From Escherichia coli (GTDB lineage Bacteria; Pseudomonadota; Gammaproteobacteria; Enterobacterales; Enterobacteriaceae), in assembly GCF_044647545.1 (NCBI RefSeq), contig NZ_CP172818.1: a stretch of DNA of 64,000 bases. The stretch is one strand, 5' to 3'. The notes under the pieces were generated by a model that was not told where the DNA came from, ran no database searches, and was given only the letters and a program-made list of their open reading frames with translations. The translations under genes and the position numbers were made by a program. This document shows positions 32,553-36,744 of the stretch, one piece after another; the first letter of the stretch is position 1; every line of letters starts with the position of its first letter.

Positions 32553-34703
32553 TTAGTGGTGCGAAGAGATCTTCACGCCGCCTTCCGGGATTGGAACGTA
32601 CGGTGTTTCTTTGTCAGTACGTTTGTCGCTGTTACGCACCGCAAGCCAGGTTTTGAAACCGTAGAAGATGATGCTGTACACCACAATCAGGAACAGAATA
32701 CTCAGACCTGCGTTGGTGTAGTTGTTCACAACGATGTGGTTCATGTTGGCAATCTGCTGCGCCGTCAGGTCAGTACCGTTAGCAATCTTCTCTTTGTACT
32801 GGCTTGCCATGTAGAAGAAGCCTTCCATCTGCGGGTTGGTGCTGAACAGTTTCAGGCCCAGCGCCCAGGTGGTGCAGATAAGCAGCCATACAGCCGGAAC
32901 AACAGTTACCCAGATGTATTGGGTGCGCTTCATCTTAATCAGCACAACGGTGCCCAGTACCAGCGCTACGGCTGCCAGCATCTGGTTGGAAATACCGAAC
33001 AGCGGCCACAGGCTCTTAACGCCGCCCAGCGGATCGACCACGCCCTGATACAGCAGGTAGCCCCACAGACCCACACAGCCCGCAGTACCGATGATACCGG
33101 CAACCAGAGAGTCGGTTTTTTTCAGGAACGGGATGAAGTTACCCAGCAGGTCTTGCAGCATAAAGCGGCCAGAACGGGTACCCGCATCCAGCGCGGTCAG
33201 GATGAACAGTGCTTCGAACAGAATACCGAAGTGATACCAGAAGCCCATGTCAGCCATCGGCAGCACTTTGTGGAACACGTGAGCGATACCTACCGCCAGC
33301 GTCGGCGCACCACCTGCACGGTTCAGGACAGAAGGCTCACCAATGTCTTTCGCGGTTTGCAGGATCTGCTCTGGCGAAATCACGAAGCCCCAGGAGCTGA
33401 CGGTCGCTGCCGCGTGTGCGGTAACGTCTTTCAGCTGCGCCATGATGATCGGCGCGTTCTCGCCACCCATTTCATGCAGGTTAGGCATGGTGATGCCAAG
33501 GCCAGCAGGCGGGGTGTTCATCGCGAAGTAAAGACCCGGTTCGATGATGGACGCAGCAACCAGCGCCATAATCGCCACGAAGGACTCCATCAGCATTGCG
33601 CCGTAGCCGATGAAACGCGCGTCGGTTTCATTAGCCAGCAGTTTTGGCGTCGTACCGGAAGAGATCAGCGCGTGGAAGCCAGATACCGCACCACAGGCGA
33701 TGGTGATGAACAGGAACGGGAACAGAGCGCCTTTCCACAGCGGGCCAGTACCGTCAATGTACTGGGTCATGGCAGGCATTTTCAGTTCCGGGTTCAGCAC
33801 CACGATACCCAGCGCCAGGCCGACGATAACGCCGATTTTCAGGAAGGTTGCCAGATAGTCGCGCGGTGCGAGGATCAGCCACACCGGCAGCAGTGCGGAA
33901 ACAAACGCATAGCCAATCAGCGCGAAGGTAATGGTGGTGTCTTTAAAGGTCAGTGCCGGACCCCAGTACGGATCGTGAGCAATCACGCCACCGAAGTAGA
34001 TAGAGGCAACCAGCAGCACGATACCAATGACAGAGACTTCACCCACACGCCCCGGACGAATAAAGCGCATGTAGATACCCATAAACAGCGCAATCGGTAC
34101 GGTTGAGCAAACGGTGAAGACACCCCACGGACTTTCGGCCAGGGCTTTAACCACAATCAGCGCCAGGACGGCGAGGATGATGATCATGATTAAGAAACAG
34201 CCAAACAGCGCGATAGTCCCCGGTACTGGTCCCATCTCTTCTTTGATCATCTCACCAAGAGATGCGCCATTACGGCGAGAGGAGATAAACAGCACCATAA
34301 AGTCCTGAACCGCACCGGCCAGCACGACCCCCGCCAGCAGCCACAGCGTGCCAGGCAGGTAGCCCATCTGCGCGGCGAGAACCGGACCCACCAGCGGACC
34401 AGCACCGGCGATAGCGGCGAAGTGGTGACCAAACAACACGTAACGGTTGGTCGGAACGTAGTTCAGACCGTCGTTGTTAATAACCGCAGGCGTCGCGCGC
34501 GTGGGGTCGAGTTTCATCACCTTCTGGGCGATGTACAGACTGTAGTAGCGATACGCCACCAGATACACCGATACAGAGGCGACCACGATCCACAGGGCGC
34601 TGACGTGCTCCCCCCGACGTAATGCAACTACCGCGAGGCAGAATGCACCGATGATTCCGAGAATCACCCAGGGTATGTGCTTGAATATCTTTTTAGTATC
34701 CAT
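32553..34703 (-). CDS. btsT: Pyruvate/H+ symporter BtsT (CstA family)
   Basis: ORF 32553-34718; ATG at 34701-34703 gives MDTKKIFKHIPWVILGIIGAF... (716 aa). Confidence 0.9.
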   Translation of the reverse strand: MDTKKIFKHIPWVILGIIGAFCLAVVALRRGEHVSALWIVVASVSVYLVAYRYYSLYIAQKVMKLDPTRATPAVINNDGLNYVPTNRYVLFGHHFAAIAGAGPLVGPVLAAQMGYLPGTLWLLAGVVLAGAVQDFMVLFISSRRNGASLGEMIKEEMGPVPGTIALFGCFLIMIIILAVLALIVVKALAESPWGVFTVCSTVPIALFMGIYMRFIRPGRVGEVSVIGIVLLVASIYFGGVIAHDPYWGPALTFKDTTITFALIGYAFVSALLPVWLILAPRDYLATFLKIGVIVGLALGIVVLNPELKMPAMTQYIDGTGPLWKGALFPFLFITIACGAVSGFHALISSGTTPKLLANETDARFIGYGAMLMESFVAIMALVAASIIEPGLYFAMNTPPAGLGITMPNLHEMGGENAPIIMAQLKDVTAHAAATVSSWGFVISPEQILQTAKDIGEPSVLNRAGGAPTLAVGIAHVFHKVLPMADMGFWYHFGILFEALFILTALDAGTRSGRFMLQDLLGNFIPFLKKTDSLVAGIIGTAGCVGLWGYLLYQGVVDPLGGVKSLWPLFGISNQMLAAVALVLGTVVLIKMKRTQYIWVTVVPAVWLLICTTWALGLKLFSTNPQMEGFFYMASQYKEKIANGTDLTAQQIANMNHIVVNNYTNAGLSILFLIVVYSIIFYGFKTWLAVRNSDKRTDKETPYVPIPEGGVKISSHH

Positions 34704-34838
34704 AGTAAAACCTGGCATGTATTGATTAATAGTTGGCCGAAGCCGTTCTAGGTTTGCGTTGCGTTTGAGGAGGTAAATTGACCGCTATCCTGTAGTGATG
34801 TTGCCAGAGTTACGCGCGCGTAAAGTAAGGTAAATAAC

Positions 34839-34867
34839 TGAGTGGTTATTTTAGGGATGTAAGCGGT
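34839..34867 (-). promoter_or_regulatory. BtsR (YehT, LytTR-type) binding site: direct repeat ACC(G/A)CT(C/T)A-N13-ACC(G/A)CT(C/T)A
   Basis: Minus strand reads ACCGCTTA-catccctaaaata-ACCACTCA, about 150 bp upstream of btsT. Confidence 0.65.
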
Positions 34868-34912
34868 CAGTTTTGCGGTTGAGCGGCAAAGGCGTCGTTT
34901 AAGTGACGATAA

Positions 34913-34934
34913 ATATGTGATTCATATCACATAT
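34913..34934. promoter_or_regulatory. CRP binding site with a perfect TGTGA-N6-TCACA core
   Basis: atatgTGTGAttcataTCACAtat; the flanks extend it to an 11-bp inverted repeat with a 4-bp spacer (34911-34936). Confidence 0.65.
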
Positions 34935-35022
34935 TTATATTGTGAATAATTTATGTAAATAATGGCTTTTTAAATTCAGAGTGTGAATAAAATTACTCGG
35001 CGTAATCTCCGCGGGATATTCA

Positions 35023-35049
35023 TAAAGTTTTTCCTTTCCAGGCCGAAAA
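35023..35049 (+). promoter_or_regulatory. Sigma-28 (FliA) class 3 flagellar promoter for tsr
   Basis: TAAAGTTT-N11-GCCGAAAA against consensus TAAAGTTT-N11-GCCGATAA, 30 bp upstream of the tsr ATG. Confidence 0.7.
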
Positions 35050-35079
35050 TCTTGCATCGGTCCACAGGAAAGAGAAACC

Positions 35080-36744
35080 ATGTTAAAACGTATCAAAATT
35101 GTGACCAGCTTACTGCTGGTTTTGGCCGTTTTTGGCCTTTTACAACTGACATCAGGCGGTCTGTTCTTTAATGCCTTAAAGAATGACAAAGAAAATTTCA
35201 CTGTTTTACAAACCATTCGCCAGCAGCAATCCACGCTGAATGGCAGCTGGGTCGCGTTGTTGCAGACGCGTAACACCCTCAACCGCGCGGGTATCCGCTA
35301 CATGATGGATCAGAATAATATTGGTAGCGGTTCAACCGTTGCTGAGCTGATGCAGAGTGCCAGTATTTCGCTGAAACAGGCGGAAAAAAACTGGGCGGAT
35401 TACGAAGCGTTGCCGCGTGACCCGCGTCAGAGCACCGCCGCAGCGGCAGAGATCAAACGTAATTACGATATTTATCACAATGCGCTGGCGGAGCTGATCC
35501 AACTGTTAGGTGCAGGCAAAATCAACGAGTTCTTTGATCAGCCGACTCAGGGATATCAGGACGGTTTCGAGAAGCAGTATGTGGCTTACATGGAACAAAA
35601 CGATCGGCTCCATGATATCGCCGTCAGCGATAACAATGCCTCCTACAGCCAGGCGATGTGGATTCTGGTGGGCGTGATGATCGTCGTACTGGCGGTCATC
35701 TTCGCCGTCTGGTTCGGTATTAAAGCCTCGCTGGTAGCGCCAATGAATCGCCTGATTGACAGCATTCGTCATATTGCAGGCGGCGATCTGGTGAAACCGA
35801 TTGAGGTGGATGGCTCTAATGAGATGGGGCAACTGGCAGAGAGTTTGCGCCATATGCAGGGAGAGCTGATGCGTACCGTCGGTGATGTGCGCAACGGGGC
35901 CAATGCCATCTATAGCGGTGCCAGCGAAATCGCTACCGGCAATAACGATCTCTCTTCGCGCACCGAGCAACAGGCTGCTTCGCTGGAAGAGACGGCAGCC
36001 AGCATGGAGCAACTGACCGCAACGGTGAAACAGAACGCCGAGAATGCGCGCCAGGCCAGCCACCTGGCGTTAAGTGCTTCTGAAACGGCGCAACGCGGCG
36101 GCAAAGTGGTAGATAACGTGGTGCAGACTATGCGTGATATCTCCACCAGTTCGCAGAAAATCGCCGATATTATCAGCGTAATTGACGGCATTGCCTTCCA
36201 GACCAATATTCTGGCTTTGAACGCGGCGGTTGAAGCAGCGCGTGCGGGTGAGCAAGGACGTGGTTTTGCGGTGGTTGCGGGAGAAGTGCGTAATCTGGCC
36301 CAGCGTAGCGCCCAGGCGGCTCGTGAAATTAAAAGCCTGATTGAAGACTCGGTGGGGAAAGTGGATGTTGGCTCTACGCTGGTCGAAAGCGCCGGGGAAA
36401 CAATGGCGGAGATTGTCAGTGCTGTGACCCGCGTGACGGACATTATGGGCGAAATTGCTTCTGCTTCTGATGAGCAGAGCCGTGGTATCGATCAGGTTGG
36501 CTTAGCGGTTGCTGAGATGGACCGGGTAACTCAACAGAACGCCGCGCTGGTGGAAGAATCTGCCGCCGCCGCCGCCGCGCTGGAAGAGCAGGCCAGTCGC
36601 CTGACCGAAGCAGTGGCAGTGTTCCGGATTCAGCAACAGCAGCAACAGCAGCGTGAAACATCGGCTGTGGTAAAAACCGTGATGCCAGCTGCGCCGCGTA
36701 AAATGGCCGTGGCAGATAGCGGTGAGAACTGGGAAACGTTTTAA
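35080..36744 (+). CDS. tsr: Methyl-accepting chemotaxis protein I (serine chemoreceptor)
   Basis: 554-aa [30 protein letters not shown]... with HAMP, methylation helices and C-terminal NWETF pentapeptide. Confidence 0.9.

Follow-up and report, generated by a model that had tools for sequence, protein, structure and literature searches.

In the stretch of Escherichia coli DNA analysed here (64,000 nucleotides, 64 kb; hereafter the window), btsT and tsr are transcribed divergently from a spacer in which a single CRP site lies between two promoters. The question that this locus raises is whether the site serves both of these promoters, a point that the first-pass annotation of the region, made from the sequence alone, had called unclear.

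The genes at either side of the spacer are the following.

32553-34703, minus strand: btsT (yjiY) coding sequence, pyruvate/H+ symporter, 716 aa (open reading frame; identical RefSeq locus annotated btsT)
35080-36744, plus strand: tsr coding sequence, serine chemoreceptor, 554 aa (NCBIfam NF011615; identical RefSeq locus annotated tsr)

In RefSeq E. coli genomes the identical stretch carries the annotation yjiA–yjiX–btsT / tsr / lgoT. Tsr scored 1221 bits against the NCBIfam equivalog NF011615 (cut-off 947), and the top match of BtsT in the NCBIfam profile search was the CstA equivalog, under its cut-off, as expected because BtsT is a paralogue. The spacer measures 376 bp (34704-35079) and matches that of E. 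coli K-12 MG1655 but for a single deleted nucleotide, located between the CRP site and tsr in the AT-rich segment 34939-35022. The 554-aa Tsr of the window corresponds to WP_000919571.1, identical in O157 strains; the Tsr of K-12 MG1655 has 551 aa.

Six elements were located between the putative btsT promoter and the start of tsr; column identities refer to a 16-genus alignment of compact spacers.

34839-34846, minus strand: BtsR (YehT) box 1, promoter-proximal, ACCACTCA (column identity 0.88; published oligonucleotide, PMC4847170)
34860-34867, minus strand: BtsR box 2, ACCGCTTA (column identity 0.95; published oligonucleotide, PMC4847170)
34880-34887, minus strand: BtsR-like box 3, GCCGCTCA, 12 bp upstream of box 2 (column identity 0.91)
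34909-34938, no strand: CRP site, TGTGA at 34916-34920 and TCACA at 34927-34931, centre 34923.5, within a 30-bp palindrome
34939-35022, no strand: non-conserved AT-rich spacer, insertion point of cargo genes in other strains and genera (column identity 0.42)
35023-35049, plus strand: sigma-28 (FliA) class 3 tsr promoter, -35 element TAAAGTTT at 35023-35030 and -10 element GCCGAAAA at 35042-35049

The direct repeat ACCGCTTA-N13-ACCACTCA (34839-34867, minus strand) agrees with the BtsR/YehT operator pattern ACC[G/A]CT[C/T]A-N13-ACC[G/A]CT[C/T]A at 0 mismatches, and the 'yjiY YehT bs' oligonucleotide used for SPR (PMC4847170) is the exact reverse complement of window 34836-34893. The 22-bp CRP site (34913-34934) has the two-fold symmetric core of the consensus AAATGTGATCTAGATCACATTT, from which it departs at only five positions (17/22 match, including the flanking T and A, TGTGAT...ATCACA), and its core, TGTGATTCATATCACA (34916-34931), is the sole perfect TGTGA-N6-TCACA in the window. 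The sigma-28 promoter, TAAAGTTT-N11-GCCGAAAA, differs by 1 mismatch from TAAAGTTT-N11-GCCGATAA (15/16 specified bases). Each of the three motifs occurs a single time in 64 kb against 0.03-0.04 occurrences expected by chance, namely 0.03 for the BtsR repeat, which has no second match even at 1 mismatch, and 0.04 for both the CRP core and the sigma-28 promoter. The first-pass annotation had reported precisely these three motifs, and this observation is correct and far above chance, as is its description of the btsT and tsr promoters as back to back, which agrees with published K-12 work. It had also placed the CRP site inside a 26-bp palindrome; the palindrome is real, and its length is 30 bp, with perfect 13-nt arms (34909-34921 and 34926-34938) around a 4-nt centre.

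The tsr promoter is well documented. A SELEX peak of the sigma-28 holoenzyme has been reported in the yjiY/tsr spacer at 4589632 in the older MG1655 numbering (PMC5493296), about window position 35033 by our own coordinate conversion, and tsr is FliA-dependent, with a 5.4-fold drop in sigma-F microarray data (PMC1935009). The sigma-28 hexamers are invariant or nearly so across the 16 genera. A generic sigma-70 scan returned three weak AT-rich matches against 1.3 ± 1.1 expected, and thus no support for a sigma-70 tsr promoter adjoining the CRP site. Most genera also share a moderately conserved AGCACGA about 5-8 nt upstream of TAAAGTTT (approximately columns 393-410 of the spacer alignment), where E. 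coli has CCGCGGGAT instead; it could be an additional tsr-promoter element in those other genera. In E. albertii NBRC 107761 an intact-looking sigma-28 promoter precedes a short Tsr-like fragment of 52% identity whose frame seems broken early, so that its tsr is probably a pseudogene.

CRP binds this region in vitro. By EMSA, Hollands et al. 2010 found that CRP binds the MG1655 tsr/btsT fragment 'much tighter' than the aer fragment (PMC2859248), which answers at fragment level the question of occupancy that the first-pass annotation had raised; a literature search for CRP ChIP or SELEX data at yjiY/tsr found nothing useful. In the same study the sigma-28 tsr promoter lies 132.5 bp downstream of the CRP site; this position, -132.5 relative to the MG1655 tsr start, corresponds to -131.5 in the window. 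The authors saw no direct influence of CRP on the expression of tsr (PMC2859248; cited there as unpublished data). One explanation to be weighed is that this single site is a shared bidirectional activator, directly serving both btsT and tsr. It is suggested by the position of the site between both promoters, about 132 bp from each start (that of btsT being predicted, see below), and by two other sigma-28 promoters, aer and trg, at which CRP directly activates sigma-28 RNA polymerase (PMC2859248). At aer and trg, however, activation requires CRP at -49.5, whereas the tsr site, at -132.5, is without detected direct effect. Measured from the tsr start, the centre of the CRP site falls at about -131.5/-132.5, and from the predicted btsT start at about -132.5, outside class I and class II geometry (-41.5, -61.5, -71.5, -82.5, -92.5) for both promoters.

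A second line of evidence on the shared-activator explanation comes from structural variation within E. coli. Of 5389 complete genomes that gave a match, 2751 contained the compact K-12-type spacer of the window, with at least 80% of its length covered; the homology of this spacer with other alleles breaks at 34886/34887 and near 35019. The term 'compact' used by the first-pass annotation consequently suits this allele, found in about half of complete E. coli genomes, and not the others. In the O157-type allele (363-366 genomes), about 0.8 kb of differing sequence replaces the approximately 130-bp K-12-type middle segment and encodes a 180-aa open reading frame, WP_000934391.1, which gave sub-threshold matches only in Pfam and PADLOC and is also found in Citrobacter and Phytobacter at 76-80% amino-acid identity. 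In the hpa-type allele (about 2066-2261 genomes), the hpa cluster, of approximately 12 kb, separates btsT from tsr. The 28 nt adjoining box 3 are unrelated between the three alleles, and each carries a perfect TGTGA-N6-TCACA at the identical offset. The O157-type CRP site is 778 nt from the tsr -35 element; in the hpa-type, where about 12 kb separates it from tsr, the site is flanked by the hpaC terminator on one side and the BtsR boxes on the other. The sigma-28 promoter remains with tsr in all three. HB101 could not be used as an hpa-type example for the btsT side, an IS1-associated deletion having taken btsT; this strain lacks btsT and the whole hsd-mrr side, and its hpa cluster terminates in a truncated hpaB beside IS1 and a truncated Rpn gene.

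The same pattern extends across the family. A single search of species-representative genomes, queried with the N-terminal part of BtsT, yielded 80 Enterobacteriaceae loci. A CRP core with no more than 1 mismatch precedes btsT at 78 of these, and of the two others one offered only 121 nt of upstream sequence. BtsR-type boxes lie at offsets of 28, 48 and 68-70 nt from the CRP core, and 27-29 nt separate the core from box 3 in 77 species of the 78 with a CRP core as well as in the three E. coli alleles. At the other side, tsr is the divergent neighbour at about half of the 80 loci. The gap between the CRP core and the sigma-28 -35 element takes values of 53, 63-66, 75-76, 82-88, 91 and 96-97 nt in compact spacers and of 739-1502 nt where genes are inserted, reaching about 12 kb with the hpa cluster and more than 12 kb overall; at the other loci no sigma-28 promoter was found within 2.5 kb. 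The inserted or neighbouring genes are mutually unrelated (among them hpaBC, the O157-type open reading frame, Ldh_2 dehydrogenases, WYL regulators, DUF3289/DUF943 proteins, a LysR regulator, a capsule-synthesis gene and a molybdo-hydroxylase). Column identity follows the same division: it is high in the BtsR boxes (0.88-0.95), the CRP half-sites (0.94) and the sigma-28 hexamers (0.95-1.0), and falls to 0.42 in the spacer 34939-35022. The O157-type and hpa-type alleles and other genera have this spacer replaced or interrupted. The spacer past the CRP site is a recurrent point of cargo insertion across strains and genera.

These distances weigh heavily against one site activating in both directions. 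Neither the length nor the helical phase between CRP and the tsr promoter is conserved, the gap varying over 53-97 nt among compact spacers and by 1 nt even between the window and MG1655, and about half of E. coli genomes, along with many genera, have whole genes or the 12-kb hpa cluster between the two. An activator position constrained towards both promoters and an effect on both, as a bidirectional pair would have, were not observed. What the first-pass annotation had called unclear is thus answered, since there is no direct tsr effect (PMC2859248) and the tsr-side spacing is unconstrained; the shared-activator explanation is largely refuted already and we regard it as very unlikely. Because the spacing is fixed on the btsT side and unconstrained on the tsr side, the data point to independent back-to-back modules and not to a shared switch.

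The fixed side of this geometry includes a third box. Of the 78 species having the CRP core, 77 have box 3 at a constant offset and with no more than 1 mismatch; the box falls within the published SPR oligonucleotide (PMC4847170). The K-12-type allele and E. albertii have GCCGCTCA at this box, and other E. coli alleles and most genera have ACCGCTCA or ACCGCTTA; the first base of the box is the exact point at which K-12-type homology breaks. The spacer between boxes 1 and 2 measures 12 or 13 bp across genera. A search with the strict 13-bp repeat pattern was dropped, as it missed Salmonella, Citrobacter and Klebsiella, in which this spacer is 12 bp.

The extended palindrome around the CRP core could itself suggest another function, either mainly as the operator of another dimeric regulator or as a recombination target behind the insertion hot spot, given that perfect 13-nt arms are longer than CRP needs and that the variable junction begins directly beside the palindrome. 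The long arms are, however, peculiar to the K-12-type allele, and only the ATGTGAT-N4-ATCAC core is kept in E. albertii, the other alleles and the other genera; CRP binding has been demonstrated in vitro (PMC2859248); and the insertions sit between the site and tsr, with end points that differ. We consider such a function scarcely credible. The non-conserved spacer nearby also holds an imperfect 17-nt direct repeat, ATTTATATTGTGAATAA (34933-34949) and ATTCAGAGTGTGAATAA (34974-34990), 41 bp apart, with a TGTGA half-site inside each copy; the second copy is not kept in E. albertii.

On the btsT side, the position of the CRP site must be read from a promoter predicted as follows.

34798-34808, minus strand: putative extended -10 element of btsT, TCTGGCAACAT, fitting TnTGn + CAnnAT (column identity 0.85)
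34704-34791, minus strand: predicted btsT 5' leader, about 88 nt, its 5' end placed from the putative -10 element

The motif T[CT]TGnCAnnAT, which also fits the general extended -10 form TnTGn + nAnnnT, was found in 80 of 81 btsT upstream regions, with 122.5-125.5 bp between its last T and the CRP centre. A transcription start about 7 nt beyond this element would place the btsT 5' end near 34791, which our conversion puts at MG1655 4591367; the boxes would then be centred at about -51.5, -72.5 and -92.5 and the CRP site at about -132.5. Searches of Cappable-seq, SMRT-Cappable-seq and Rend-seq data for a measured btsT start returned none. The box centres are 40, 60 and 81 bp from the CRP centre (successive centre-to-centre spacings of 21, 20 and 40 bp), and all three boxes and the CRP site lie roughly on one face of the helix. 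Two other readings of this stretch were rejected: TTTACC-N16-TAACTC, a btsT promoter candidate specific to E. coli whose -10 hexamer falls in non-conserved columns, and a sigma-54 reading of the conserved TGGCA, which comes without a -12 element. Since the putative btsT core promoter (about 34798-34808) falls to the left of 34839-35049, the interval of the first-pass annotation, the full control region is wider and runs from about 34791 to about 35056.

Published work ties btsT to CRP genetically. btsT is the sole target of BtsS/BtsR and is further controlled by cAMP-CRP, by LeuO repression and by CsrA at the level of translation (PMC5431176; PMC5936718), the control of btsT mRNA by CsrA being reported in PMC5431176 and that of yjiY by cAMP/CRP in both studies; deletion of crp abolishes expression of a btsT-lux fusion (PMC7730263). 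An alternative in which CRP binds but affects btsT indirectly, through btsSR expression or pyruvate excretion, leaving the site non-regulatory or architectural, draws on the fact that this literature consists of crp-deletion and catabolite-repression phenotypes only (PMC5431176; PMC7730263; PMC5936718), and on a position near -132.5 that is unusual for a direct activator. Set against it is the position-locked conservation of the site (half-sites at 0.94, a box 3 gap of 27-29 nt, about 78 species and three unrelated E. coli flanks), which is hard to explain without a function linked to the BtsR boxes. We therefore judge an indirect effect unlikely as a full account and infer a direct action of CRP at btsT, although the loss of expression in crp mutants could be partly indirect.

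Taken together, two independent abutting promoter modules, with a CRP site that serves btsT as co-activator and leaves tsr without direct effect, very probably describe this locus. The first module, on the minus strand, would consist of the CRP site followed by three LytTR-type BtsR boxes, the extended -10 element and the leader of about 88 nt leading into btsT. Pyruvate-activated BtsS/BtsR would occupy the boxes, with cAMP-CRP as an obligatory co-activator. From near the predicted -132.5, CRP could not reach RNA polymerase in the class I or class II manner, and co-activation would probably proceed via DNA bending, aid to BtsR occupancy, or the alpha C-terminal domain, in what is at most a class III-like co-activator arrangement. 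The second module, on the plus strand, would be a self-sufficient sigma-28 class 3 promoter leading into tsr, and the approximately 90 bp from the CRP site to the sigma-28 -35 element would be an unconstrained spacer. CRP activates flhDC, and flhDC activates fliA; through flhDC and then fliA, the influence of CRP on tsr would be indirect only.

Several known systems share features with this arrangement. CRP acts from a distal position at the co-dependent promoters rhaSR (at -111.5, upstream of RhaR), araBAD, melAB and malK. By analogy, btsT would share with these promoters a CRP site upstream of the sites of a specific activator and a requirement for both, and would differ from them in its LytTR-type regulator, its three in-phase boxes and a CRP site further out, at about -132.5 by prediction. 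The divergent promoters malEp and malKp truly share one CRP site, and such sharing needs a geometry constrained towards both promoters. The btsT–tsr pair resembles them in having back-to-back promoters with CRP between, and differs in that the constraint applies to the btsT side only. The tsr region studied by Hollands, Lee, Lloyd and Busby (2010; PMC2859248) has the identical CRP site and sigma-28 promoter; it is aer and trg, directly activated by CRP at -49.5, that differ. With the K-12 yjiY (btsT) promoter (Kraxenberger et al. 2012 and later work of the Jung laboratory), the locus of the window shares the sequence, the 13-bp-spaced repeat and the dependence on cAMP-CRP, CsrA and LeuO, with no material difference beyond one deleted spacer base.

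The locus is, in consequence, a well-characterised case of textbook-level K-12 regulation, largely published already, and what the present comparison adds is small: the third BtsR box, the locked CRP-to-box geometry at an unusually distal position and the cargo-insertion point. Box 3 and its fixed offset of four helical turns from the CRP site do not figure in the later K-12 yjiY papers cited here; both could stand already in Kraxenberger et al. 2012, and an explicit prior description of this conserved third box may be lacking. The insertion hot spot, for its part, may be without an explicit earlier description. A combined reading of these additions is possible, and we put it forward tentatively, as somewhat short of probable. 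The btsT side would be a deeply conserved enhancer-like array, three in-phase BtsR boxes, 20-21 bp apart, being preceded at about four helical turns by a CRP dimer near -132.5, and the spacer beyond the CRP site would be a hot spot where cargo is inserted and exchanged throughout the Enterobacteriaceae (among others the hpa cluster, the 180-aa open reading frame of O157 and Citrobacter, Ldh_2 dehydrogenases and WYL regulators), with the btsT and tsr modules as homology anchors for exchange. In annotations this CRP site should go with btsT, as a co-activator alongside BtsR, rather than with tsr, and the two promoters should be treated as independent. The three E. coli alleles and about 78 species constitute a natural experiment in which the CRP-to-BtsR geometry is held and the tsr side varies freely.

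The btsT leader contains one further element.

34734-34745, minus strand: UUCG hairpin in the btsT leader, CGGCTTCGGCCA (G-C to A-T covariation, E. coli vs Salmonella)

This UUCG-tetraloop hairpin is missing from Kosakonia and Phytobacter leaders and shows the compensatory change CAGCTTCGGCTG in Salmonella and other genera. Some btsT 5' leaders, in certain E. coli, an Escherichia clade, E. albertii and Citrobacter, carry an insertion of about 123 bp that by eye resembles an ERIC/IRU repeat (…CACTTACTGTTGTAAGCTCCCGGGGATTCAC…) and leaves the putative -10 element and the ATG 218 nt apart instead of 95.
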